A DNA stretch of 64,000 bases from an uncultured Bacilli bacterium (GCA_947632455.1 CANRPK010000002.1:16683-80682), one strand, 5' to 3'. Shown: positions 29,029 to 49,245, counted from the first letter of the stretch. The notes: generated by a model not told the origin, from the letters alone. Translations and numbers: made by a program.

Positions 29029-31035
29029 TTAAAATATTAAATTAATTCCCCAAGCAATAAACATTCCTACTAAAAGTGGTATTATAAACGCTAAAAACGT
29101 ATAATAATTACTATTAGTTTCTTTTTTTATTGTTAATAATGTTGTAGAACAAGGATAATGAAACATCATCAAAACTATAAAACATATCGCCGTTTTAATT
29201 CCCCAATTATTCATTATTAAAATTTCTTTTAATGCACTTACACTTGTAAAATTTGTTAAAGAAGAAGTCTTAAGATATCCCATAATCATCGCTGGAATTA
29301 CTATCTCATTTGCCGGAAATCCTAATAATAAAGCAAGAATAACTACTCCATCAACCCCTAATATTTTACCTATCGGATCTAAAAAATTACTAATTAAACT
29401 AAGAATAGGTTCATTATTTATTTTAATATTAGCTATTCCCCAAATAATAAATCCTGCAAAAATAGCCACTTTAACAGCTCTTCCTAAAACATATATTGCT
29501 CTATTTTTAAAACTATATTTTATAGTTTCAATAATATTAGGAAAACGATAAGGCGGTAATTCTAAAGTAAAACTTGAAGCTTTACCCTTTAATATAGTTT
29601 TAGATAAAACAAAACTAATTATAAAAGTTAATAAAATTCCCCCACCCATAAATAAAGTTAAAATTAAAGCACACCATAAACTAGAATATTTATTAGTAAA
29701 ATTTAAGAAAAACATCGTTATAACTGCAATAAGTGTAGGAAATTTTCCATTACATGGTACAAAAACATTTGTTAAAATTGCAAGTAACCTCTCCCTTTTA
29801 GAATCTATTATTCTTGCTCCAGTTACTCCGACCGCATTACAACCAACCCCCATACACATAGTAAGGGCTTGCTTACCACAAGCATTACATTTCGAAAAAG
29901 CTTTATCCATATTAAAAGCAATTCTTGGTAATACTCCTAAATCTTCTAAAAAAGTAAATAATGGAAAGAAAATCAGCATTGGTGGCATCATCACTGAAAC
30001 AACCCAATATAATGTTTTATAAACCCCATTTACTAATAAATCATTAATTACTTTAGGTACTCTAATAAAATTTAGAAAATTAGCTATATTATCTTCTAAA
30101 CCTTGAAAGAAATTAAATAATAAATTTGATGGTCCATTAGCTCCTTTAATAGTTAAATAAAAGATCAAAAATAAAAATATTAACATAATTGGTATACCCC
30201 ATAACTTACTAGTTAATATCCGATCAATCTTAAGTACTTTCTCTTCATAGTCTTTCTTTTTATAATAAACTACATTTTTTAATTTACTAACCACTATCTT
30301 TCTTATTTTAATAGCTACCTCTAAATTAATATCTACTTTCTCTAATCTTTCTTTAGACTTTTTAGTATTATCACTTAAATTAATTAAATTATTTTTTCTA
30401 AATTTATCTATATAATATTGATTATTCTCTAAAACTCTTAATGCCATCCATTTCTTATTTTTTGAGGATTCTTTAATATCTTTCTCTACCATTTTTATAC
30501 TATCTTCTAATATACCATAATCAATATTTAAATAATCACTTTCCTTTGCTTCTCTAATAGTTTTAAGTAATTCTTCTAATCCCACTTTTTCTTTAGCACT
30601 CATTTTTACTAATGGTAAATTTAAATTATTTTTTAATACCTCATAATTTATTGTAATCCCCTTTTTAATTGCTTCATCAATTAAATTAATACATACTACA
30701 ACCTTCTTAAATATCTCTTGAGTTTGAACAACTAAATTAATTCCCTTATCTAAACTTGTTGCGTCACAAACTACCACGGCAACATCAAAAAGACCATCAA
30801 AAATAAAATCTGTTGCGACCACTTCTTCTTTACTTCTAGCTAAAAGTGAATAAGTCCCAGGTAAATCATAAAATTCATATTTTATACTTTCAAAAACACA
30901 TTCTCCCTTTGTAAATTCCACGGTTTTTCCTGCCCAATTTCCTGTATGTACATCATTTTTAGTGAGGGCATTATAAATAGTTGATTTCCCCACATTTGGG
31001 GTTCCTATTAACGCTACTTTAATTGTTTTCATCAT
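29029..31035 (-). CDS. feoB: ferrous iron transporter FeoB
   Basis: N-terminal G-domain (GTPNVGKST, DLPGTYS), the gate motif, and a polytopic C-terminus. Confidence 0.93.
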   Translation of the reverse strand: MMKTIKVALIGTPNVGKSTIYNALTKNDVHTGNWAGKTVEFTKGECVFESIKYEFYDLPGTYSLLARSKEEVVATDFIFDGLFDVAVVVCDATSLDKGINLVVQTQEIFKKVVVCINLIDEAIKKGITINYEVLKNNLNLPLVKMSAKEKVGLEELLKTIREAKESDYLNIDYGILEDSIKMVEKDIKESSKNKKWMALRVLENNQYYIDKFRKNNLINLSDNTKKSKERLEKVDINLEVAIKIRKIVVSKLKNVVYYKKKDYEEKVLKIDRILTSKLWGIPIMLIFLFLIFYLTIKGANGPSNLLFNFFQGLEDNIANFLNFIRVPKVINDLLVNGVYKTLYWVVSVMMPPMLIFFPLFTFLEDLGVLPRIAFNMDKAFSKCNACGKQALTMCMGVGCNAVGVTGARIIDSKRERLLAILTNVFVPCNGKFPTLIAVITMFFLNFTNKYSSLWCALILTLFMGGGILLTFIISFVLSKTILKGKASSFTLELPPYRFPNIIETIKYSFKNRAIYVLGRAVKVAIFAGFIIWGIANIKINNEPILSLISNFLDPIGKILGVDGVVILALLLGFPANEIVIPAMIMGYLKTSSLTNFTSVSALKEILIMNNWGIKTAICFIVLMMFHYPCSTTLLTIKKETNSNYYTFLAFIIPLLVGMFIAWGINLIF

Positions 31036-31252
31036 TTACCTCAATATTCTTAGCATCTATATTTCTAAGGGCAATTATATTATTATTTATTTTATAAGCT
31101 TTAGGATCTTTAAAAGGACTAATAAGTACACATTTTACTTTATTATTGGGAATAAATCCCAAATCTAATAATCTCCTTTTTAAAGAACTATCTCTTACTT
31201 TTTCAACCACTACTTCTTTATTTAAAGAAATAGTATCTAAAGTCATAATCAT
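31019..31252 (-). CDS. feoA: FeoA family protein
   Basis: 77-aa SH3-like FeoA pattern (RRLLDLGF). Overlaps the start of feoB. Confidence 0.85.
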   Translation of the reverse strand: MIMTLDTISLNKEVVVEKVRDSSLKRRLLDLGFIPNNKVKCVLISPFKDPKAYKINNNIIALRNIDAKNIEVNDENN

Positions 31253-31335: not shown

Positions 31336-31737
31336 ATGCATGAAGAATTTTTTACTCTTACTAATTATTTACATAACAATAATGATATAACTTACGCTAT
31401 GGAAGATTATTTAGAAATGCTTTTTCGTAAACAAAAAGATAAACTTACTATTACTAAATTAAGTAAACTTTTAAATATAAAAAAATCATCCTGTAGTAAG
31501 ATGATTTCTAAATTAAAAAATCATAATTTAGTTATAGTTCAAAATAATAATTTACTATTAACTTCTAAAGGTTTAAAAATAGCTAAATATTTATATAAAA
31601 GACATAATATTTTAACTACATTTTTAACTAAATTAAATAAAAATCAATTTTCTTTAGATCAAGTAGAAAAAATAGAACATTTTATTGATCCCATAACTCT
31701 TAAAAATATTGAAAAACTAATTCATAATATAATTTAA
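31336..31737 (+). CDS. DtxR/MntR family metal-dependent repressor (short form)
   Basis: MEDYLEMLF, an HTH (ITKLSKLLNIKKSSCSKMISKL), and LTSKGLKIAKYLYKRHNILTTFL. Confidence 0.75.
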   Translation: MHEEFFTLTNYLHNNNDITYAMEDYLEMLFRKQKDKLTITKLSKLLNIKKSSCSKMISKLKNHNLVIVQNNNLLLTSKGLKIAKYLYKRHNILTTFLTKLNKNQFSLDQVEKIEHFIDPITLKNIEKLIHNII

Positions 31738-32412
31738 TAAAATTGGTGCTAAAATAATTAATAGAATTATCGGAATAAAAAATAATACACTAATAACACT
31801 TATTTTAGTTGGTAATTTAGCTATTTCAGCTTTTACGTCTAATATTTGCTTTTGTCTTAAATAATCTATTTGATTATATAAAGAATCCACTATATTAGTC
31901 CCATAAATATTAGCTTGAACCATATTTAATATTGCATTATTTATTGCCTCACTAGGTATTCTCTTTTTTAAAGCCTCCAAAGCTTCATTAATACTTTTCC
32001 CTAATTTAACTTCATGAAGCATTGTTTTAAATTCTAAAGATATTTCAGAATCTATATTTTCAACTGTTAAATCTAAGGCATGCTTTAAACTTCTACCACC
32101 CTCTAAAGTTAAAACCAAAACTTCAAAAAAGAATATAGCTTCTTTCTCTAACTTTTTTCCTCTTTTTTTGATATTATAATCATAAACAAAATATTCAAAT
32201 AATATATAAAAAATAAGAGCAATAACTGGTGCTAAAATAGCCCCATATTTACAAGTAAATAATATAATAATAAAAATACTTATTACCAAAGCTAATCTTA
32301 TATTTAAAAATGTTTCTACTTTTAAAGCTTTACTACCTAATTTTTTTTCTTTAGCTTCTAATCTTTTAATAGTACTATTTAAATATATTTTATTAATAAA
32401 TGATCTTTTCAT
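31717..32412 (-). CDS. tadC: type II secretion F-domain platform protein, TadC-like
   Basis: T2SSF-type membrane protein. Last gene of the tad operon. Confidence 0.7.
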   Translation of the reverse strand: MKRSFINKIYLNSTIKRLEAKEKKLGSKALKVETFLNIRLALVISIFIIILFTCKYGAILAPVIALIFYILFEYFVYDYNIKKRGKKLEKEAIFFFEVLVLTLEGGRSLKHALDLTVENIDSEISLEFKTMLHEVKLGKSINEALEALKKRIPSEAINNAILNMVQANIYGTNIVDSLYNQIDYLRQKQILDVKAEIAKLPTKISVISVLFFIPIILLIILAPILLNYIMN

Positions 32413-33407
32413 AACTTCACCTCAAGTACTCTTTTGATAATTAAAATATATAGTGTATATAATAAAATTATAAAAACTAAACAAATAATTCCTAAAGGTG
32501 TTTCTACTAAAGGTTTAAAATATAAAGGATTTAATAAAGCAATTATCATAATAAATATAAAAGGTAATAATACTAATAATTTAAATACAAATCTACTAGT
32601 CGCCGTTAAACTATTAAGTTCATTTTTTAAATTCTTTTTATCAAAAAAAGATCTTTCTATTAATGAAAATACTTTTATAATATCTCCACCCGTTTTATTT
32701 AAAAGTGTAAGTGAAGAAGTAATATATTTTGCATCTTCTAATTTAACTCTTTCATAAAATCTTTCAAATACTACATCTAAACTAAGACCATAAGTTATAT
32801 CTAAATATATCTTTTTAAACTCATCTTGAATAGGTCCATCTAGTTCATCCTTAACTACCTCCACCGCTTGCATTATATTTCTACCACTTTTAAAAGCATT
32901 ATTCATAATAATAATTGCTTTTAATAAATCATTTTCAATTCTTTTTCTTTTCTGTTGAAATTTAATTTTTAAATAAATATCTGGAAGTATAAAACTTAAT
33001 AAGAAGGCTATTAGTAATACCATTATATCTATTTTTTCTTTTTGTAAACTAAAAGATAATAATCCTAGTAACATAACTAAGAACGCTAATAAAAACTTAT
33101 ATGCGACAAAAAACATTCCATTTTTCTTTTTTTGAGCTTCATAACTAATATATTTATTATACTTTGTCGCATATTTTGTTAATACTTCTGAATGTCCTAA
33201 TATTTTTGATAATTCTAAAACTAACTTTTCTATTAAAATTTTAAACTTATCTAAAATTGATCCATCATCATCTACTTTGTTAGTATTTATTGCAAATCTA
33301 GCAATTCTTTTTTCTAATTTTAAAACATAAGAAAGTCGAAGTAAATAAACTATTACTCCTAAAATAATTAATATTAAAATGATTTGTAATATTCTTGCTC
33401 CGACCAT
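32409..33407 (-). CDS. tadB: type II secretion F-domain platform protein, TadB-like
   Basis: T2SSF pattern, adjacent to the CpaF ATPase gene. Confidence 0.7.
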   Translation of the reverse strand: MVGARILQIILILIILGVIVYLLRLSYVLKLEKRIARFAINTNKVDDDGSILDKFKILIEKLVLELSKILGHSEVLTKYATKYNKYISYEAQKKKNGMFFVAYKFLLAFLVMLLGLLSFSLQKEKIDIMVLLIAFLLSFILPDIYLKIKFQQKRKRIENDLLKAIIIMNNAFKSGRNIMQAVEVVKDELDGPIQDEFKKIYLDITYGLSLDVVFERFYERVKLEDAKYITSSLTLLNKTGGDIIKVFSLIERSFFDKKNLKNELNSLTATSRFVFKLLVLLPFIFIMIIALLNPLYFKPLVETPLGIICLVFIILLYTLYILIIKRVLEVKL

Positions 33408-33417
33408 TTTAACTCCT

Positions 33418-34845
33418 CTATTCTTTTGGACCTATACCTTCATATTTTCCTCGATAATATAAAGTTTGTACTTTACTATCTTCCTCTAACTTAGGCTTTA
33501 CTTCTTCCGGCTTTTGATAATTAGGATTAAAAATATCTTCAATATCACTAATTCCTCTAGCTAAAATCTTTTTATAAACTCTCGGTATTCCTTCATATAA
33601 AATAAATTCTCCATCAACTTCTCCAGTCTCAGTTAAACCTTTTTGTTTAAAAGCAAATATTTCTTTTAATTTAATTTCACCATCATTTAAACCTTCAAGT
33701 TCACATATACTTGTAATCTTTCTTTTTCCATCCCCCATTCTTTCAATATTAACTACTAAATCTATAGCACTAATAATATACTCTCTTACAGCTTTAACTG
33801 GAATATCCATGCCTCCCATTAAAACCATTGTTTCTAATCTATTTAAAGCATCTATTGGTCCATTTGCATGCATTGTCGTAAGTGAACCTTCATGTCCCGT
33901 ATTCATTGCTTGTAGCATATCAAAAGCTTCTTTACCTCTTACTTCTCCGACAATTATTCTATCAGGCCGCATTCTAAGACTATTAATAACTAAATCTCTA
34001 ATGGTTATCTCATTATTACCTGCATAATTAGTAGTCCTAGTCTCCAAAGATATTACATGCCCTTGTTCTAATTTTAATTCCGCGGCATCTTCAATCGTTA
34101 TAATTCTTTCATTTTCCCCAATAAAACCACTTAAAATATTTAAAAGTGTTGTTTTACCTGAACCAGTACCTCCACAAATAATCATATTTAACTTTCCTCT
34201 AACCGCTGCATCCAAAAATCTAGCCATATAAGGAGTTAATGTTCCCACTCTAATTAATTCATCAATACTGCTCATTGATTCTTTGAATTTTCTAATAGTA
34301 ACTACTGGCCCTTTCGTTGAAAGTGGTGGAATAACCGCATTAATTCTTGAACCATCTAATAACCTAGAATCCACCATCGGATTAGAAGCATCTATTGTTC
34401 TTCCTAAAGGTTGAATAAGTCTTTGTACTGTTCTAATAATATGCTCATCATTAATAAAAGACACACTATCATCTCTACTTATTACTCCATCTATTTCTAT
34501 ATATATTTCATTAGGAGAATTAATCATAATTTCGGTAATATTTTTACTATTTAATAATTCTGTAATAGGTCCATATCCATTAATTTCATTATCAATTAAA
34601 TTATATAAATGACTTCTCTCTAAATTCGATAAATCATATCCTTCAATCGTTTTATCAATTAAATCATTAATCCATTCATTTAAAGTTGTATCATTAGGCA
34701 TTTCTCGATCAATTAAATTTTCTACAATTTCCGTTCTTAATTTATCTAATAATTTTTTATCTTTAAATATTTCATAATCACTAATTATATTTACTTTAGT
34801 TTCTTTACTTTTTATATCAAAAGCATCTCTTAAACTTTGTTTCAT
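33418..34845 (-). CDS. tadA: CpaF/TadA family secretion ATPase
   Basis: Walker A GGTGSGKTT, Asp/His boxes (IITIEDAAEL, RMRPDRIIVGEVRG, TGHEGSLTTMHAN). Confidence 0.92.
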   Translation of the reverse strand: MKQSLRDAFDIKSKETKVNIISDYEIFKDKKLLDKLRTEIVENLIDREMPNDTTLNEWINDLIDKTIEGYDLSNLERSHLYNLIDNEINGYGPITELLNSKNITEIMINSPNEIYIEIDGVISRDDSVSFINDEHIIRTVQRLIQPLGRTIDASNPMVDSRLLDGSRINAVIPPLSTKGPVVTIRKFKESMSSIDELIRVGTLTPYMARFLDAAVRGKLNMIICGGTGSGKTTLLNILSGFIGENERIITIEDAAELKLEQGHVISLETRTTNYAGNNEITIRDLVINSLRMRPDRIIVGEVRGKEAFDMLQAMNTGHEGSLTTMHANGPIDALNRLETMVLMGGMDIPVKAVREYIISAIDLVVNIERMGDGKRKITSICELEGLNDGEIKLKEIFAFKQKGLTETGEVDGEFILYEGIPRVYKKILARGISDIEDIFNPNYQKPEEVKPKLEEDSKVQTLYYRGKYEGIGPKE

Positions 34846-35606
34846 GCTTCTACCCCTTCATTATACATATCACTAATAAGTTGCATTAAAGATGTATAAT
34901 CTCTACTAAATAAAATTGGCATTTTATCATCTAAAGTAATTATCTTTCCATCCATAATTATACTATCAATATTTTTAATATAAAAATCTTTAGAAATAAC
35001 ATAATCAACATTAGAATTAATAATATTTTTTATATCATATAAACTAAAATATTTCCTAAATGGATAAATACTTTCATTTAATACTATTTTATAATTATTA
35101 TAATTAATATCTTTTAATATAGTTAAAATACTTCGCATATTCTTTAAATCTAAAGGATCATTAGTAACTAAAAATATTAACTTATCTACTAAATCCATGA
35201 CTGAAATATTAATATCATTTAATATATGACTAGTATCTATTAAAACAATATCATAATTATATACTGCTTTATCAATTACTAATTCTACATATTTAGCATC
35301 AATCTTATTAGCTTGTCTAGGATCTTTAGGACTAGCTAAAACATCTATATAATTATCATATTTTGTAATATAATCTTTAAAATCTTTATAACGATTATTA
35401 TTATAATCATCTATAAAATTATAAATACTTTTATTAACATTTACATTTAAAGATGTAGCAATTCCCCCACTAGCTAAATCAAAATCAATAATTAATACTT
35501 TTTTTTCTAAAGTCTCATATAACCCCGCTAAATTTAAAGTAGTAATTGTTTTTCCTACTCCTCCTTTTGCTGATGTTATACATATTGCTATACCCTTACT
35601 ATTCAT
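34842..35606 (-). CDS. tadZ: ParA/MinD-type ATPase, CpaE/TadZ-like
   Basis: Deviant Walker A SAKGGVGKT. Preferred start is ATG 35604-35606 behind GGGTGA. Confidence 0.75.
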   Translation of the reverse strand: MNSKGIAICITSAKGGVGKTITTLNLAGLYETLEKKVLIIDFDLASGGIATSLNVNVNKSIYNFIDDYNNNRYKDFKDYITKYDNYIDVLASPKDPRQANKIDAKYVELVIDKAVYNYDIVLIDTSHILNDINISVMDLVDKLIFLVTNDPLDLKNMRSILTILKDINYNNYKIVLNESIYPFRKYFSLYDIKNIINSNVDYVISKDFYIKNIDSIIMDGKIITLDDKMPILFSRDYTSLMQLISDMYNEGVEA

Positions 35607-35620
35607 ATATTCACCCACTT

Positions 35621-35992
35621 TTATTCAATCATAATTTTGTTATTTAATTTATACCCCATAACATCTACTTTTATTTTATAACTATCTATTCCAATAATAT
35701 TTCCAAAAATACTTTCTATTTCTATTTCATTTCTAATTCTTATTTTATCATTATTTATATCAACTTTTAAATTAGTTATATCTATATTATTTTCTTTAAA
35801 TAGTTTTTCTATTTTATCTTGTTTATTTTCTTCATCAATTACATCTTTTATTATCATTCTACTTACATTTTCTAATTTAGCATGAGCATTACTAATAACT
35901 CCAATATCAACTACAAAAGCCCACATCATAATTATTAAAGGAATAAATATTATAAATAAAATTAATACTTGTCCATTTTTATCCAGTCTCAT
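35621..35992 (-). CDS. TadG/TadE-like pseudopilin (Tad_N type N-terminus)
   Basis: Has an MRLDKNG-QVLILF leader and hydrophobic segment, followed by DIG, as in TadG N-termini. Confidence 0.55.
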   Translation of the reverse strand: MRLDKNGQVLILFIIFIPLIIMMWAFVVDIGVISNAHAKLENVSRMIIKDVIDEENKQDKIEKLFKENNIDITNLKVDINNDKIRIRNEIEIESIFGNIIGIDSYKIKVDVMGYKLNNKIMIE

Positions 35993-36317
35993 TTAAAATA
36001 CTCCTTGATACTTCTATTTTATAAGGATTTTTAAGTATTAAATTTAATCCTGGTGTTATAATACTAATATTTTTATAAATAGTTAAATTTGTTAAAGTAT
36101 CTTCCTTTTTTACATCAATCTCTTCTATATCTAACTTATTTTTAATATTTTCTTGAGACTCACCCTTCTTATATAAATCTACTACATCACTTATTTGATC
36201 TTCCAATCTAATTTTCATATAAAAAAGTTTACCTATATCAAAAACTCCTAATAAAAGGATTAAAAACACCGGTAATATTATAATAAATTCAACTAATGCT
36301 TGCCCTTTTTTTTTCAT
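35979..36317 (-). CDS. tadE: TadE-like pseudopilin
   Basis: MKKKG-QALVEFIIILPVF carries the G/xxxxEF processing motif of TadE. Confidence 0.7.
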   Translation of the reverse strand: MKKKGQALVEFIIILPVFLILLLGVFDIGKLFYMKIRLEDQISDVVDLYKKGESQENIKNKLDIEEIDVKKEDTLTNLTIYKNISIITPGLNLILKNPYKIEVSRSILNETG

Positions 36318-36340
36318 TTTTTACCCCTTTTAAGTGCCAG

Positions 36341-36532
36341 TTAATCTCCCTTACATTTTCCCTCGCCAGGTTTATCACCTTTTATATATTCTTCATCAAC
36401 AAGGCTGCAAGAAGTTTTAGTTAAAGCATCTTTTAAATACCCACCAAAATAATTAACAAGTGCAATCGCAATAACACTAATTAAAGCCACGATAAGTATA
36501 TATTCCACTAATGCCTGACCGCGCTTATTCAT
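36341..36532 (-). CDS. flp: Flp family type IVb pilin (63 aa)
   Basis: MNKRG-QALVEYILIVALISVIAIA carries the Flp G/xxxxEY motif. Preferred start is ATG 36530-36532 behind GGGTGAGGG. Confidence 0.8.
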   Translation of the reverse strand: MNKRGQALVEYILIVALISVIAIALVNYFGGYLKDALTKTSCSLVDEEYIKGDKPGEGKCKGD

Positions 36533-36555
36533 AACCCTCACCCTTATCATAATTA

Positions 36556-38277: not shown

Positions 38278-39018
38278 TTATTCAGCAATTTTTATATCTT
38301 CATACGTATTTAAAACATCTCTTTTAGCTTTACCATCTTCATAATAATATTTACATTCTACTAAAGATATTTTATCTTCTTCTACTAAAGGCTCTAATAC
38401 ATATATTTGTCCATCTTCATATTTAGCTAATATTTGTTCACTATCATCATAAAATATTTGTAAATCAGTAATATAGTAAACACTTTCATCTTTAATAACC
38501 GCTCCATTAGGAACTAATAAATCTCCTAAATCATCAAATAAGAAATAAAAACTTTTATTATAATTACCATAACAATTAATCTCTAATAAAATATAATCTT
38601 TATCTTCAATTTTAATTATTTGAATATCATCTATATTTAATTTTATATTATTTATATCTTCATTAGAAAATACTTCTTCCGCTGAAACATCCTCAATATC
38701 TAATTTAGAAATTATATTTTCATTAATAATATTTCCTCCATCAAAATACACTAATAATTCTAAAAAACCTTCATTCAATTCTTTTTCTAATTGAACTTTA
38801 TATTCAAATTTAATCTTATGTCTTTGTCCATTTAAATATACATTATAAAGTTCAGCTAAAACATTACCATTAAAATTACTACTAACAAGTTCAATAACTT
38901 CTCCCTGAGAATTAACTACATCTCTTCTAACTCCCCGAGAATTTAAAGTATAAACAGTTATTCCAATTATTCCTGATAATGCAATAATGCCAATGATTAA
39001 ACTTAGTATTTTTTTCAT
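38278..39018 (-). CDS. hypothetical N-terminally anchored extracytoplasmic protein (246 aa)
   Basis: Signal/anchor MKKILSLIIGIIALSGIIGITVY. No known motif. Confidence 0.5.
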   Translation of the reverse strand: MKKILSLIIGIIALSGIIGITVYTLNSRGVRRDVVNSQGEVIELVSSNFNGNVLAELYNVYLNGQRHKIKFEYKVQLEKELNEGFLELLVYFDGGNIINENIISKLDIEDVSAEEVFSNEDINNIKLNIDDIQIIKIEDKDYILLEINCYGNYNKSFYFLFDDLGDLLVPNGAVIKDESVYYITDLQIFYDDSEQILAKYEDGQIYVLEPLVEEDKISLVECKYYYEDGKAKRDVLNTYEDIKIAE

Positions 39019-39070: not shown

Positions 39071-39097
39071 CAAAAAAAATCACTAAATTGTGATTTA
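39071..39097 (-). terminator. terminator closing the upstream pilin-like operon
   Basis: Minus strand reads AAATCAC-aattta-GTGATTT followed by TTTTTTT. It overlaps the stop codon of ORF 39095. Confidence 0.65.
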
Positions 39098-40090
39098 CTT
39101 AAATATATTAAATAATTTATTTTTGTTAGAACCATTTCCGCTAAGTCTTGAAAAACCTAAAGATATTAAGAAATCATCTAAGATTGGTTCTCTTTCTTTC
39201 TTATCATCTAAATAAGGTATACTAAAGAATACTTTACTATTAACCTCATTTTCAAAATCATTAACATCTTTATTAGTAAGAATACTCTTATTTAAAACAA
39301 TCTTTTTATCTTTTAATTTCTCAAATATTTCTCGATCATTTCTTACTAACTTATTAAGCTTAATTAATCCCGGTTCAATTAAATATATTACTTCATTACA
39401 TAATTCATTATGAATAGAATCATTTAAATCAACCAAAATTACTTCAGCTTCTGGATTATTGGCAATATTAAATGATAAATCATTATCTAAAGTTGTCTTT
39501 AAACTTTTATCATTAAAATATCTAAAATCTTCTCTATTTACTTCTAATGCCACTACATTGTAAGCCACTTCTAAATGTCTTTTTAACATATATATTAAAG
39601 TTGTAGCTCCAGCATGAGCTGTAACATTTCTAAAACCAATAATTCGAAGTCCTCCACTGCCTGTTCCAGAAAAAGTATCAAATTCCACTAGACTAACATC
39701 ATCTGAATTACTTAAATTGTGATATTGAGCTACATCTTTATATGAATTAGGATTATCAATCAAAAATTTAACTGCATTTATATTTCTTGTAAAATTATAA
39801 ATTCCCATAGATACTAATTGCGATAAATATCCCCCACTATTAACCATTGCTGAATCATCTAATAATAAAATTACTTTATTCATATCAAAATTAACAGATA
39901 ATTTTTGAATATTTTTTATATTTTGATAATCTTTTATTGCAGTTATATCAATAATCATTTTATTAAAGTAAAAATTTGTAAATTGTTTAACTAAATCTTC
40001 AATTTCAAATTCCCCATTAATACTCTTTATCACATCTATATCTAAAGTAGATAATAAATTTTGATATTTATTAGAAACAATTACATTCAT
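39095..40090 (-). CDS. TadZ/CpaE-like protein with a degenerate P-loop (receiver-like N-domain plus ParA-like C-domain)
   Basis: The segment IIGFRNVTAHAGATTLIYMLKRHL sits where ParA/MinD proteins carry KGGxGKTT, followed by a hhhhD (VILVDLN) Walker-B-like strand. The N-terminal ~110 aa have an alternating beta-alpha pattern. Assignment is by pattern only. Confidence 0.4.
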   Translation of the reverse strand: MNVIVSNKYQNLLSTLDIDVIKSINGEFEIEDLVKQFTNFYFNKMIIDITAIKDYQNIKNIQKLSVNFDMNKVILLLDDSAMVNSGGYLSQLVSMGIYNFTRNINAVKFLIDNPNSYKDVAQYHNLSNSDDVSLVEFDTFSGTGSGGLRIIGFRNVTAHAGATTLIYMLKRHLEVAYNVVALEVNREDFRYFNDKSLKTTLDNDLSFNIANNPEAEVILVDLNDSIHNELCNEVIYLIEPGLIKLNKLVRNDREIFEKLKDKKIVLNKSILTNKDVNDFENEVNSKVFFSIPYLDDKKEREPILDDFLISLGFSRLSGNGSNKNKLFNIFK

Positions 40091-40092
40091 TT

Positions 40093-40575
40093 TTATCCTC
40101 CTATTACTGCACTATACATAGCTCCATCAGAATCCAAGAAATTTGATGTTGTTCCTCTTACATTAAAACCAGCCGCAGTTCCAATAATTGGTAAATTAAA
40201 TTTATAGAAAACTCCAACTTGATAATATGTTGTTGACTTTATTCCTCTATATTTTTGAATACAATAATAATATTTAGCCCCAGGACGAGCCTGCTCTAAA
40301 TTAGTACTAGATAAAGACAAACCTCCATAAACTCCTCTTTTAGTACTTTTTGTACAAACTCCCGTCGCACTATAACCATTATATCTTAAATAATTATTTA
40401 TTAGAGCCACAGAAGTTTCATTTAAGCCTTCATATTTTTCTATGATACTCACAACTTCATTTTTTACTCTTATTGTCTTTGAATAATTAATTGTTAAAAT
40501 TATAAAAGCTACAAATAAGAATATAAATGTTATCATTAAACCCATTAACCATGAGCCACCTATTGAAGATCGCAC
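40093..40575 (-). CDS. TadE-sized pseudopilin-like protein B (160 aa)
   Basis: GTG start behind AGGTGA. Has an MRSSIGG leader and a 22-aa hydrophobic helix. Paralog of ORF 40585 (shared INYSK..VKNE..I and YYQV..FY..LPII blocks). Confidence 0.5.
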   Translation of the reverse strand: MRSSIGGSWLMGLMITFIFLFVAFIILTINYSKTIRVKNEVVSIIEKYEGLNETSVALINNYLRYNGYSATGVCTKSTKRGVYGGLSLSSTNLEQARPGAKYYYCIQKYRGIKSTTYYQVGVFYKFNLPIIGTAAGFNVRGTTSNFLDSDGAMYSAVIGG

Positions 40576-40584
40576 TTATATCAC

Positions 40585-41094
40585 CTACCTACACCATTCA
40601 TAATTAGCTGCTTGATATTCACATTCATTTGGTGCGTAAATTCTGGCAGTTTCACCCATAACTGATAAGTTAAACACTGATTTAATTATTGGTAAATCTA
40701 ATTGATAAAAAAGCTTTACTTGATAATACAAGGCATTAGGAAGTTCCGAATTACCATTAAGTCTAATTGCTTTAACACAAAATGCTGCATTTTGAGCGCC
40801 TTTACCAATTAATTCTCCATTTCTTCTATATCCATACCAATCACTATCACATCTACCTTGACTATGATATGAAACATCTCCAAAATAATCACTTATTTGT
40901 TCAGCAAAATTATAACAAATACCAACACTTCGATCAGTACATACTCCCCCTTGATTTTTTATAATATTTACAATTTCATTTTTAACATTATATGCCTTAG
41001 AATAATTAATTGATAAACTAATATAACCGGCAAAAAGTAACACTAAAGCAATAACAAGTCCAAATAAAGAAACACCGCCGACTGACTCTCTCAT
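40585..41094 (-). CDS. TadE-sized pseudopilin-like protein A (169 aa)
   Basis: Has an MRESVGG leader and a hydrophobic helix. Contains 6 Cys. Paralog of ORF 40093. Confidence 0.5.
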   Translation of the reverse strand: MRESVGGVSLFGLVIALVLLFAGYISLSINYSKAYNVKNEIVNIIKNQGGVCTDRSVGICYNFAEQISDYFGDVSYHSQGRCDSDWYGYRRNGELIGKGAQNAAFCVKAIRLNGNSELPNALYYQVKLFYQLDLPIIKSVFNLSVMGETARIYAPNECEYQAANYEWCR

Positions 41095-41107: not shown

Positions 41108-41362
41108 TTAACCTTTCCATGGACACATAATTTTTTGACTAGGATGACCTTTTACATAACACTCTACTAAGCCATCTGTCACAATACAATTTCCATTTGA
41201 ATCACGATTGGTACAAGTACAGATTGCTTCATTACAACTAGCATTTCTTTTAAAACTTCCTCTAATACTTGGCCAAATTACTGTAAAGAAAAAAAGAGAC
41301 AACCCAGCAACTATTGTCACAACAATAATAGTCATATTAAGTTCGCCTTGTGCCTCTTTCAT
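41108..41362 (-). CDS. Cys-rich small pilin-like protein 3 (84 aa)
   Basis: MKEAQG-ELNMTIIVVTIVAGLSLFFFTVIWPSI followed by a 6-Cys C-terminal domain. Has its own RBS AGGAGG. Confidence 0.6.
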   Translation of the reverse strand: MKEAQGELNMTIIVVTIVAGLSLFFFTVIWPSIRGSFKRNASCNEAICTCTNRDSNGNCIVTDGLVECYVKGHPSQKIMCPWKG

Positions 41363-41379
41363 TTTTCTTTCCTCCTATT

Positions 41380-41634
41380 TTATGTAGTTGTTGCACTATT
41401 ATCTGGATTTGGACAAGTTATAGGTTGAGTACTTATTTGTCCATTATCATCGATGTAGTAGCAAGAACAAGTCTTTCCTGAGCAAGTACATGACGAAGTA
41501 TTTGCACATTGATTATTTCTTTGAATTGTAGTTTTTATACTTGGCCATACAAAAGCATAAAAGAATGCTGCTACAGCTGCAATAGCAACTACTGTAATAA
41601 CGGTCATATTTAATTCTCCAGTAGCTTCCTTCAT
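41380..41634 (-). CDS. Cys-rich small pilin-like protein 2 (84 aa)
   Basis: MKEATG-ELNMTVITVVAIAAVAAFFYAFVWPSI followed by a 6-Cys domain. RBS AGGAGGG. Confidence 0.6.
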   Translation of the reverse strand: MKEATGELNMTVITVVAIAAVAAFFYAFVWPSIKTTIQRNNQCANTSSCTCSGKTCSCYYIDDNGQISTQPITCPNPDNSATTT

Positions 41635-41650
41635 TTATTATTCCCTCCTT

Positions 41651-41899
41651 TTATGTTGTCGCAGTATTATCCGGATTTGGGCACGTTACAGGTCCCGCCT
41701 CTTGTCCATTATCGTCAATATAATAACATGAACATGTTTTACCGTTACATGTACAAGATGAAGTATTTGCACATTGATTATTTCTTTGAATTGTAGTTTT
41801 TATACTTGGCCATACAAAGGCATAAAAGAATGCTGCTACAGCTGCAATAGCAACTACTGTAATAACAGTCATATTTAATTCTCCAGTAGCTTCCTTCAT
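41651..41899 (-). CDS. Cys-rich small pilin-like protein 1 (82 aa)
   Basis: Its first 141 nt differ from protein 2 at only 2 positions. The C-terminal 6-Cys domain is diverged. RBS AAGGAGG. Confidence 0.6.
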   Translation of the reverse strand: MKEATGELNMTVITVVAIAAVAAFFYAFVWPSIKTTIQRNNQCANTSSCTCNGKTCSCYYIDDNGQEAGPVTCPNPDNTATT

Positions 41900-41930: not shown

Positions 41931-41959
41931 ATTATAACCAATTTTAATTAAAATATCAA
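41931..41959 (-). promoter_or_regulatory. promoter of the Cys-rich/pseudopilin operon
   Basis: Minus strand reads TTGATA, a 17-nt spacer, then TATAAT. Confidence 0.6.
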
Positions 41960-42051: not shown

Positions 42052-42702
42052 ATGAAAGAACAAATTATAAATTTCTTTAAAGGCTTAGGTACCATATTTC
42101 TTTACTTTTTTCTAGCCGCCGTAGGTTATATATTATTTAAAGACTATTATACTAGCTCTAATATTATAGTCTCATCATTATCTCAATTAGGTACTTACAT
42201 AATAATTTTAATTGGCTTATGTATTGTTTATCATGAAAGATTAATTGAAGATTTTCAAAACTTTAAAAAAGAAAACTTAAAAATTGCTCTTAAATATTGG
42301 CTTATTGGTCTAGGAGTTATGTTAGCAACCAATCTTGTAATTAATTCCATTATTCATACCATTCCCGCTAATGAAAGTGCTAATCGTGAATTTTTAGCCC
42401 AATTTCCTTTAAGTGGTCTTTTAATTGTTGCCATCATTGGTCCTATTACTGAAGAATTAACTTTTAGAGCTAGCTTTAAAAATGCATTCAAAAATTGGTT
42501 ACCATTTTGTCTTGTTACTGCCTTCTTCTTTGGCTTAGCCCATATTGCTGAACCAAACTTATTAGAACTCCTATATATCATCCCTTATGGAGCTCTAGGT
42601 TTCTTCTTTGCTAAAGCTTTTTATGAAACAGATAATATATATTCTTCAATATTTATTCATATGTTACATAATACTCTAGCCGTATTACTAATATCTATTT
42701 AA
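42052..42702 (+). CDS. CPBP family intramembrane glutamic endopeptidase (CAAX protease/Abi type)
   Basis: EELTFR, FGLAH and HMLHN motifs within a polytopic protein. Confidence 0.8.
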   Translation: MKEQIINFFKGLGTIFLYFFLAAVGYILFKDYYTSSNIIVSSLSQLGTYIIILIGLCIVYHERLIEDFQNFKKENLKIALKYWLIGLGVMLATNLVINSIIHTIPANESANREFLAQFPLSGLLIVAIIGPITEELTFRASFKNAFKNWLPFCLVTAFFFGLAHIAEPNLLELLYIIPYGALGFFFAKAFYETDNIYSSIFIHMLHNTLAVLLISI

Positions 42703-47433: not shown

Positions 47434-47784
47434 TTAGTCCTTTGGTTCAAAAAATATTGTTAAAACTACCGCGAATATTACCGCCCCAACTATAGCCGCT
47501 CCTCCATTAGTTAAAATTCCTGTAAATATTCCTAATATTCCTTTACTTTGATATCCTTCAATTCCCCCTTTATATAATAAATATCCAAAGTTAGAAATTA
47601 TTGTAGAAGCTCCCCCTCCAGCTAACTTAATTAATTTATCATAGATACCTAAAAATCCTAAAATAGCTCCTAACACTGTAAACATTGAAGTAACATGTCC
47701 TGGTGTTAATTTTGTATTATCTAAAATAAGCTGGGCCACTAAACAAAATAAACCCGCGACTATAAAAGCCCATATAAAAGTCAT
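47434..47784 (-). CDS. spoVAE: stage V sporulation protein AE
   Basis: 116-aa polytopic protein of SpoVAEb type, third gene after spoVAC and spoVAD. Confidence 0.8.
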   Translation of the reverse strand: MTFIWAFIVAGLFCLVAQLILDNTKLTPGHVTSMFTVLGAILGFLGIYDKLIKLAGGGASTIISNFGYLLYKGGIEGYQSKGILGIFTGILTNGGAAIVGAVIFAVVLTIFFEPKD

Positions 47785-48758
47785 TATAATACCTCCAAAC
47801 TAACCGCATGAGCAATTCCTGGAATACCTAATTTTTGATTAGCCATAGTTACAGATTGTAAAGACCCTGTGGCTATTATTAATATTTTTTTATATTTTTT
47901 AGAATTTAATATTTTATCAAATAAAACTAAAGGTAACGCTACTGGTCCACTAGCCCCAGCATACGTTTCTTGACTATTAGTATAGATTTCACATCCAGCA
48001 TCCATATATTTTTTTAATTTAATATCATGTACTTTATCAAGCATCTCCAAAAATATTTCCTTTCCAACTTTTCCTAAATCTCCAGTTAATATTAAATCAT
48101 AATAATTAGCACTACGTTTCATTTCATTTAAATGGGTAACTAAAGTCTTAACTGCCGCTGGAGCCATAACTGCTCCCATATTATTTGTATCAGTTATTCC
48201 CATATCAACACTTTCCCCTATTGTTGCACTTTCAATTTGAATATTAGTTTTTTCATTTGTAAGTAAAGTTGCTACTGCACCAGTCGTAGTAAAAGTACTT
48301 GTATGCTTTTTAATTGCCCCGTATTCTATCGGATATCTAAATTGTCTTTCAGCATTTAAATTATGACTACTAGTTACATTTACTACTCTCTTAGCTAGTT
48401 TACCACTAATAAAAGTTGAAGCTACAATCAATTCTTGAGCAAAAGTACTACAAGCACTATATAATCCTAAATAAGGTATTTTAAATTTTGCCGCATTATA
48501 ACTACTAACACTAACTTGATTTGTTAAATCTCCTCCAATTAATAAATCAATCTTACTATCTGTTAATTTATTATAATTTAAAAGATTATCTACCACTACT
48601 TGTTGCATTTTTATTTCTGCTTGTTCAAATGTTTTTTCACCATAATAATAATCATCAATAGCTAAATCATAATTATTTAAAAGTCCATCTTTTTCTAAAG
48701 GTCCAACCAAAGAAAAATAATCTTTTAAATAAACATTATTAAATTTTTTACTAGCCAT
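47784..48758 (-). CDS. spoVAD: stage V sporulation protein AD
   Basis: Thiolase-like SpoVAD pattern, 324 aa, flanked by spoVAC and spoVAE. Confidence 0.85.
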   Translation of the reverse strand: MASKKFNNVYLKDYFSLVGPLEKDGLLNNYDLAIDDYYYGEKTFEQAEIKMQQVVVDNLLNYNKLTDSKIDLLIGGDLTNQVSVSSYNAAKFKIPYLGLYSACSTFAQELIVASTFISGKLAKRVVNVTSSHNLNAERQFRYPIEYGAIKKHTSTFTTTGAVATLLTNEKTNIQIESATIGESVDMGITDTNNMGAVMAPAAVKTLVTHLNEMKRSANYYDLILTGDLGKVGKEIFLEMLDKVHDIKLKKYMDAGCEIYTNSQETYAGASGPVALPLVLFDKILNSKKYKKILIIATGSLQSVTMANQKLGIPGIAHAVSLEVL

Positions 48759-49188
48759 TAATCATCACCTTCACAATCACTAATATAAAAGCACTTACTA
48801 TTCCATATAAAATAACACTTCCAGCTAATTTAAAAAAATTTGATCCTAACCCAGTAACTAAGCCTTCTTTTTTATAATCTAAAGCACTACTTGATACAGA
48901 ATGAGCAAATCCTGTTGTTGGTAATAATAATCCTGCTTTAGCTTTACACATCCAATTATCAAAAAAACCTAATGCTGTAAATAATGATGATACAAATATT
49001 ACAATTAAACAAGTCCATGTACTAGCATCTACTCTTGAAATATTTAAAATTCCCATTAATAATTGAATTATGCCCTCCACTAAAAAGCCAATCATTCCTC
49101 CCGTTAAAAATGCAAATAAAGCATTTTGGGTTTTATTTTCTTGGGGTTCATGCTTTTTTACTAACTTTTGATATTCATCTTTATTCAT
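48751..49188 (-). CDS. spoVAC: stage V sporulation protein AC
   Basis: TTGFAHSVSSSALDYKKEGLVTGLGSNFFKLAGSVILYG closely parallels Bacillus SpoVAC. Preferred start is ATG 49186-49188 behind GGAGG. Confidence 0.85.
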   Translation of the reverse strand: MNKDEYQKLVKKHEPQENKTQNALFAFLTGGMIGFLVEGIIQLLMGILNISRVDASTWTCLIVIFVSSLFTALGFFDNWMCKAKAGLLLPTTGFAHSVSSSALDYKKEGLVTGLGSNFFKLAGSVILYGIVSAFILVIVKVMING

Positions 49189-49245
49189 AATAACCTCCAC
49201 TCTTATTATGAAATAAATAAAAAAAGTTATACACAAAAAAAGTAC

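Follow-up and report, generated by a model that had tools for sequence, protein, structure and literature searches.

A candidate Tad-like surface fibre with cysteine-rich, hypervariable subunits in uncultured gut Bacilli

Our subject is a group of three adjacent genes in a 64,000-nucleotide stretch of DNA (GCA_947632455.1, CANRPK010000002.1:16683-80682), hereafter the window, from an uncultured Bacilli bacterium. The window is very AT-rich, with a GC content of 25.7%. The genes, called g1 (41651-41899), g2 (41380-41634) and g3 (41108-41362), are all on the minus strand and encode proteins of 82, 84 and 84 amino acids, respectively. An earlier note, made from the sequence by itself, had described a tandem triplet in which each gene has a strong ribosome binding site. 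Three adjacent open reading frames (ORFs) are indeed present, each with AGGAGG positioned 7-9 nucleotides 5' of the ATG. All three are also predicted, by independent gene callers, on metagenome contigs from the same organism. The common layout ascribed to the proteins is equally evident. Each starts with MKEA[TQ]GELNMT, followed by a hydrophobic stretch of ~20 residues that closes with WPSI[KR]; the cysteines number exactly six, all within the C-terminal ~40 residues. The g2 protein is identical to database protein P0001. What did not survive is the idea of three copies: g3 is 39% identical to g1 and belongs to a separate, conserved orthologous class. A promoter-like sequence, TTGATA-17-TATAAT, lies on the minus strand at 41931-41959, ~32 nucleotides upstream of g1. 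With 11 of 12 matches this is the top-scoring site in an AT-rich region where the total number of such sites is not above the shuffled expectation. From its position, we infer that the site may act as a promoter. No convincing terminator was found after g1, g2 or g3.

A protein search with g1 returned 2165 clusters of relatives (90% identity), all without a Pfam domain; those with a name are called 'hypothetical'. Using representatives at 50% identity, a profile search placed 686 clusters in the family (E ≤ 0.001), with lengths between 43 and 142 amino acids. Over hundreds of clusters the first 34 residues, MKEATGELNMTV[VI]TVVAIAAVAAFFYAF[VI]WPxIK, are almost invariant. Beyond residue 34, the sequence varies around a cysteine framework and the tail is rich in Ser, Thr, Asn and Gly. 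There are 4 or 6 cysteines in 130 of 149 family representatives, and nearly all counts are even, which fits the formation of disulfides. Counting one genome per species, the family occupies at least 426 loci, nearly all in metagenome-assembled genomes of uncultured gut 'Bacilli', 'Tenericutes' and Erysipelotrichaceae. One assembled genome reported to carry it bears the label [Clostridium] spiroforme. A phage origin was considered and rejected, since a scan of viral contigs contained no relatives.

Almost every related locus has a gene of one class, T1, followed by a gene of another, T3. The T1 proteins, which include g1 and g2, combine the invariant N-terminus with a highly variable head, comprising the cysteine-rich part; g1 and g2 have different head alleles. 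We regard T1 as the putative major, pilin-like type. The T3 proteins have a looser N-terminus and a C-terminus of the form C-x-[WYFN]-K-G. The g3 protein, which ends CPWKG, is in this second group. Across 69 T1 genes, pairwise identity is 77% for residues 1-42 and 31% for the head. The corresponding ratios of non-synonymous to synonymous differences (pN/pS) are 0.25 and 0.90. For T3, the N-terminal part has 56% identity and a pN/pS of 0.44, and the head 43% and 0.65. The contrast that the note drew between a conserved helix and a variable head thus extends across the family. So does its novelty: the note knew of no such pilin class, and we found no paper, and no model in Pfam or NCBIfam, that describes these proteins.

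The genes g1 and g2 have an unusual relationship, detected in a repeat search as a 234-nucleotide direct repeat with 265-nucleotide spacing. Codon-by-codon comparison identified only 2 nucleotide differences, both synonymous, in codons 1-46 (41762-41899 in g1 and 41497-41634 in g2, minus strand). The note had extended this block to codon 47, which in fact carries a third synonymous change. Thereafter, synonymous differences accumulate sharply. There are 13 in codons 47-62, along with one replaced codon (N/S at 52), and 12 in codons 48-66, matching the note's estimate for the 19 codons after its block. A 2-codon indel follows, and then the sequences diverge. Third-position differences occur in 2 of 46 codons on one side of the breakpoint and 13 of 19 on the other (Fisher p=1.4e-7). 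Since the residues after the breakpoint are still the same, with near-saturated synonymous change, the duplication must be old and the 5' half homogenised. Constraint on the RNA does not explain this pattern, because synonymous sites in the helix-coding block do diverge between species. Compared with g1, the first 33 codons of T1 genes in other species differ at a median of 18 nucleotides in 99, with only 3 amino acids different (n=67). Conversely, in each of the three genomes with two T1 genes (the window, L011 and L019; L numbers denote related loci), the first 40 codons differ by 1-3 nucleotides within the genome and the heads have diverged. The proposed boundary between a homogenised 5' block and an old 3' block is therefore real, and it recurs.

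The genes that follow in the window, again on the minus strand, belong to the same conserved unit. On the basis of synteny, AlphaFold2 (AF2) modelling and profile alignment, m169 (40585-41094) is minor-pilin-like; its leader reads MRESVG, the helix is hydrophobic and 6 cysteines are conserved. The next gene, m160 (40093-40575), encodes a second minor-pilin-like protein of the m169 family, starting MRSSIGG and always paired with m169. Of the 80 related loci, 77 have such a pair, with ~160 amino acids per protein. By consensus, family members start with MKEAxGG, followed by a hydrophobic stretch, and have six conserved cysteines; m169 itself starts MRESVGG. A profile comparison aligns this family, over its first 29 residues, with residues 1-33 of the small proteins (E 0.0031). 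Next is p331 (39095-40090), which encodes a conserved cytoplasmic protein of 331 amino acids found in 73 of the 80 loci. It has 6490 database relatives and no Pfam domain. Weak CbiA/ParA matches in 5 of 33 members, and a short local hhalign match to the TadZ protein of the window at the equivalent motif (E 0.0075; a hint, not homology), make a degenerate ParA/TadZ-like ATPase fold plausible. A search of PDB sequences with the p331 profile gave nothing significant. Note that, in a low-coverage metagenome contig from the same organism (L083, 1460-2444), p331 is split into ORFs of 94 and 250 amino acids, reflecting a frameshift variant or else a fault of assembly. In the window lineage the cluster is closed by p246 (38278-39018), encoding a membrane-anchored protein that has no Pfam match and homologs only in syntenic relatives L008 and L055. 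The cluster of this lineage is intact and under purifying selection. Ratios of non-synonymous to synonymous substitution (dN/dS) are 0.06-0.14 for p331, 0.18-0.26 for m169 and 0.23-0.54 for g3, with dS near saturation.

Our view of the wider locus comes from clustering the ORFs of the 80 related loci and running Pfam on representatives. A recurrent order emerged. It begins with a CAAX protease on the opposite strand, a ~247-residue protein, a ~1000-1300-residue protein, DUF5411 and CpaB/RcpC (PF16976). These are followed by a ~365-residue T2SSE ATPase, membrane proteins of 298 and 262 residues, T1 and T3. Then come the two ~160-residue proteins, the ~331-residue protein and at least one small T4SS_pilin-like protein. 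Often, the locus ends with a TrbL/VirB6-like protein, a ~100-residue protein, a TraC-like protein, a VirB4-like ATPase, a Peptidase_M23/lysozyme hydrolase, a ~250-residue protein and VirD4. Among the 63 loci with 5 kb of room or more, ~49, or about three quarters, have the T2SSE ATPase upstream (47 after length filtering and 2 added back). Its sequence is 70-84% identical among loci, and its top relatives of solved structure are CpaF (2e-17), FlaI (6e-16) and VirB11 (1.5e-15). Hence, the pilin-like interpretation in the note gains support from gene context, as the genes of relatives come after CpaB, a T2SSE/CpaF-like ATPase and two polytopic membrane proteins. Where there is room, a T4SS_pilin-like gene follows the unit of pilin genes and p331 in 42 of 56 loci, and TrbL-like or VirB4-like genes are downstream in 25 of 44.

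Other genes recur at these loci. In L029 (1430-1870, minus strand) and 10 others, the gene for a membrane-anchored thioredoxin-fold protein separates the CAAX protease from the start of the locus. This protein may be an extracytoplasmic disulfide oxidoreductase that acts on the cysteine-rich components. A YfhO membrane glycosyltransferase gene (PF09586, E 1.6e-145) adjoins the cysteine-rich pilin genes in 7 loci (L039, L008, L064, L075, L076, L079 and L080), together with a GT2 enzyme in L039 (6138-9577). This hints that the Ser/Thr/Asn-rich heads may be glycosylated. Together, the even cysteine numbers, the membrane thioredoxin and the YfhO neighbour fit an exported, disulfide-bonded and possibly glycosylated head. 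The interval between the 262-residue membrane protein gene and the first pilin gene is a hot spot for insertion (L018, L024, L035, L047 and L060). The inserts differ by genome, and include genes for an ORF6N protein, a PD-(D/E)XK transposase, a Na/Ca exchanger, a BclA_C protein and an amidoligase.

In some relatives, a chromosomal module resembling a type IV secretion system (T4SS) is found directly after the pilin/p331 cluster (L085, 11061-20999; L020, 12576-19210; L094, 6413-17753). About one third of long contigs have the pilin cluster immediately 5' of this module and, in some loci, the cluster stays with the module while the CpaF-like ATPase is elsewhere. A metagenome scan identified 467 relatives of the VirB4-like protein; a first scan, with a 255-residue protein of the module as query, gave no matches. 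The last gene of the module is VirD4, and there are housekeeping genes on both flanks. We searched for a relaxase or integrase around the module and saw none. An obvious integrative and conjugative element (ICE) is therefore unlikely.

The surroundings of the cluster in the window are different. We compared every component of a complete relative locus with the window using tblastn, and found only the three small genes, m169, m160, p331 and a TadA that is 27% identical to the ATPase accompanying the cysteine-rich family. No T4SS-like genes were found within the 64 kb, and the lineage keeps the cluster nonetheless. Instead, a divergent gene for a CAAX/Rce1-like intramembrane protease (42052-42702, plus strand; PF02517, E 1e-15) is the left-hand neighbour. 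It directly adjoins the pilin genes here and in the closest relatives (L007, L008, L013, L055 and L063). Hence, neither the machinery segment nor the secretion-like module is local in this lineage. Since modules are sometimes separated in other lineages, they may lie elsewhere in the genome. The CAAX gene flanks the locus in 21 of 80 relatives, and a functional link, such as processing of the MKEAxG leader, is speculative. Filament machinery is confined, in the window, to a canonical, complete-looking Flp/Tad locus identified by Pfam, 5 kb downstream of the cysteine-rich cluster (31717-36550, minus strand), that encodes Flp, TadE, TadG-like, TadZ, TadA, TadB and TadC proteins. It has neither CpaB nor a prepilin peptidase. 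Between the two are obg and a DUF192 gene, and L008 is arranged in the same way. Further away are spoVAC/spoVAD/spoVAEb-like genes (47434-49236, minus strand) and feoAB (29029-31252, minus strand), neither of which is part of the conserved synteny. From these genes, the organism looks like a spore-former with ferrous iron uptake.

The note had suggested structure prediction for the monomers. The AF2 model of g1 (predicted local distance difference test score, pLDDT, 82) has a helix spanning residues 7-44 (7-28 and 30-44, with a kink at Pro31) and then three strands. For m169 (pLDDT 86; predicted template modelling score 0.78), a helix at residues 6-48 is followed by a second at 58-73 and a sheet of four to five strands. 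The predicted structures thus share the general layout of a type IV pilin, with a long N-terminal helix and an antiparallel sheet. Of a class III signal peptide, g1-g3, m169 and m160 have the leader length, the Gly and the hydrophobic stretch of ~20 residues, but not the Phe or Met at +1 or the Glu at +5.

We propose that g1-g3 encode structural subunits of an undescribed surface fibre, Tad-like or type IV filament-like, in uncultured, low-GC gut Bacilli, and assign this a probability of roughly 0.68. The proposal draws on the far stronger conservation of the helix than of the head, the Gly-ended leader common to the larger proteins, CpaB/CpaF-like synteny and the predicted lollipop shape. From these, we infer export, leader cleavage, disulfide formation, filament formation and the choice of machine. 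The six-residue leader, MKEAxG, would end in Gly like the leaders of type IV prepilins. The near-invariant hydrophobic helix, of ~35 residues, would pack in the filament core. The head, of ~40 residues, would form a three-stranded sheet with two or three disulfides and a Ser/Thr/Asn-rich tail, exposed and fast-evolving. In this scheme g1 and g2 would be main-subunit paralogs, their helix halves kept identical by gene conversion and their heads being old, distinct alleles. Two head alleles on one core could give one cell two surface variants. The g3 protein would be a different, conserved second subunit, with m169 and m160 as minor-pilin-like proteins that have the leader in common, and p331 as a cytoplasmic accessory protein. 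In most relatives the adjacent CpaB, CpaF-like ATPase and two membrane proteins would drive assembly. In the window genome, this might fall to an assembly module elsewhere in the genome or, in its place, the Flp/Tad machine 5 kb downstream.

Several results count against such a fibre. The note had called for searches with Flp and type IV N-terminal models, and none matched g1-g3 above its cutoff. Flp_Fap (PF04964) gave no match to g1, g2 or g3 at E ≤ 1, and the PF04021 (class III signal) and N-methyl models gave none. The archaeal Pilin_N model reached E 0.055, below its cutoff. The note's opinion that these proteins have the size of Flp but are something else is supported. PF04964 detects the true Flp gene of the window (36341-36550, minus strand; E 8.8e-8), and the G/xxxxEY motif, which appears as G-QALVE[YF] in the Flp (G-QALVEY) and TadE proteins, is absent from MKEATG-ELNMTV, where positions +1, +5 and +6 are Glu, Thr and Val. 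Only 13 transmembrane columns of the pilin family aligned with this Flp using hhalign. The leader lacks the usual Phe or Met at +1, where there is Glu instead, and the usual Glu at +5. Because K34 and R39 follow the helix and the N-terminus is approximately neutral, charges alone do not predict the N-in orientation. Foldseek comparison of the g1 and m169 models with the PDB had best E values of 0.3 and 0.27, with no pilin. Profile searches of PDB sequences, with the pilin and minor-pilin alignments, returned nothing significant. Tested in this way, g1-g3 do not belong to Flp or any other known pilin family. Sub-threshold Pfam and NCBIfam candidates for g1-g3 and their neighbours (FeoB_associated, archaeal Pilin_N, knottin toxin and ATP synthase b) were rejected as noise. 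The machinery raises its own difficulties. A dedicated ATPase and platform genes are missing from the window. In relatives, the platform proteins beside the ATPase are not recognisable as TadB or TadC. The 298- and 262-residue families gave short local hhalign matches, at the motif expected, to the window TadB and TadC with E values of 0.17 and 0.011, which are hints and not homology, and no member of the 262-residue family has a T2SSF match in Pfam. Finally, no prepilin peptidase (A24) was found among window ORFs or conserved locus genes. Any peptidase must therefore be unlinked, for the Flp/Tad and cysteine-rich systems alike.

Three other explanations were weighed and, on the evidence, all are weaker than a surface fibre. 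The proteins might be a membrane-embedded, or short pseudopilus-like, part of the VirB4/VirB6/VirD4 apparatus, forming a stalk, channel lining or anchor with no free pilus. Gene order lends this some weight. A T4SS_pilin-like gene is next in 42/56 loci, TrbL-like or VirB4-like genes occur in 25/44, and the full module also has the TraC-like protein, VirB4, cell-wall hydrolase and VirD4. Loci where the pilin cluster has parted from the CpaF-like ATPase, and remains with the secretion module, point the same way. We nevertheless consider this explanation unlikely. The tightest and commonest upstream partner is the set of CpaB, CpaF-like ATPase and two membrane proteins, the VirB2/TrbC pilins of T4SSs have two helices rather than one, and hypervariable heads point to exposure beyond the wall. 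Furthermore, the window lineage retains the cluster without a T4SS-like gene in 64 kb. Note that this explanation overlaps with a composite one, described below, where filament and secretion modules work together.

It is much less probable that the genes encode small bitopic membrane proteins with a cytoplasmic, metal-binding cysteine tail of the FeoB-associated type. Positive residues do follow the helix, feoAB is in the window (~29-31.3 kb), and g1 and g2 weakly match PF12669 (E 0.006-0.01). At 16.5-17.2 bits, against a cutoff of 27, these matches are under the gathering score, and g3 has none; moreover, feoB is 10 kb away and outside the conserved synteny. CxxC pairs, too, are absent, the tails are hypervariable and rich in Ser, Thr, Asn and Gly, and the membrane thioredoxin and YfhO glycosyltransferase neighbours in relatives speak against a cytoplasmic location. 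Least probable of all, and hardly to be expected, are secreted cysteine-rich peptide precursors, akin to bacteriocins or ribosomally synthesised and post-translationally modified peptides, with the CAAX protease providing maturation or immunity. A conserved leader joined to a variable core rich in Cys, Ser and Thr is the pattern of such peptides, the divergent CAAX/Rce1-like protease is often adjacent, and the heads have very weak similarity to knottin (Toxin_35) and fungal antifungal proteins (E 0.011-0.5). This 'leader', however, is a 20-residue hydrophobic helix, conserved far beyond the needs of a signal or leader peptide, and many loci with the cluster do not have the CAAX gene. Neither the window cluster nor the conserved locus in the 80 relatives contains a modification enzyme, ABC exporter or immunity gene, and the synteny is with filament and secretion ATPases.

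Returning to the surface fibre, we tentatively entertain an extension that is doubtful as it stands. The cysteine-rich subunits could be the extracellular fibre of a composite chromosomal machine, in which a Tad-like filament is coupled to the VirB4/VirB6/VirD4 module. With a wall hydrolase and no visible relaxase, such a machine might carry out pilus-assisted transfer of DNA or protein in monoderm, genome-reduced gut Bacilli. The head-divergent paralogs could determine which partner or receptor is recognised, or help to escape phages and host immunity. The frequent linkage to VirB4/VirD4 makes pilus-assisted transfer in monoderms a testable idea. More broadly, type IV filaments play a central part in adhesion, DNA exchange and interaction with the host, and current models fail to see the pilins of most uncultured gut lineages. 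The family described here is large, specific to poorly known gut Bacilli and encoded in one of their most conserved loci. Its near-invariant N-terminus of 34 residues is an easy marker, at which antibodies or probes might also be aimed. Recognition of hosts, phages or partners may fall to the hypervariable, disulfide-rich heads.

Among known systems, the Flp/Tad (type IVc) pili are similar in having very small subunits (~50-90 amino acids) with a short, Gly-ended leader and a single long hydrophobic helix. Two larger proteins, like TadE/TadF, are encoded next and have the N-terminus in common and, in relatives, CpaB, a CpaF-like ATPase and two polytopic membrane proteins adjoin. Unlike Flp, the cysteine-rich family has no PF04964 match and no G/xxxxEY, and has a beta head of 40 residues with 4-6 cysteines, where Flp has almost none. 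The platform proteins and p331 cannot be identified as TadB, TadC and TadZ, and the locus has no TadV. Type IVa and IVb pilins, and ComGC, also have a six-residue, Gly-ended leader, a conserved alpha-1 helix and a variable head, and in many type IV pilins the C-terminal region is stabilised by a disulfide. Mosaic or gene-converted pilin paralogs, as seen for g1 and g2, are known from families of the pilE/pilS type. The cysteine-rich family differs in lacking Phe or Met at +1, Glu at +5 and an N_methyl match, and its head is far smaller.

Two systems of uncultured or commensal gut Firmicutes are also comparable. In a Tad-like cluster specific to TANB77, the pilin-like proteins also escape homology detection, and one affected the response to immunotherapy in mice (PMC11680825). 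A predicted operon resembling type IV pilus and type II secretion systems, with CpaF, PilC/GspF and DUF5411, has been noted in Roseburia, Ruminococcus and Eubacterium, and is uncharacterised (PMC9523054). As here, CpaB and a CpaF-like ATPase precede single-helix, pilin-like proteins that models do not recognise, and DUF5411 is in the operon. Those pilin-like proteins have 143-621 amino acids, are not reported to be Cys-rich and come from Clostridia. The MKEATGELNM family is described in neither paper, nor is a linked VirB4/VirD4 module.

A type IV filament module encoded together with a transfer apparatus of the VirB4/VirD4 type is familiar from the thin (type IVb) pili of IncI plasmids, for example R64, and from pilus-assisted transfer of ICEs. 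Those are mobile elements of diderms, with relaxases. The locus described here, where no relaxase or integrase was seen, is instead chromosomal, flanked by housekeeping genes, and its filament module is Tad-like.

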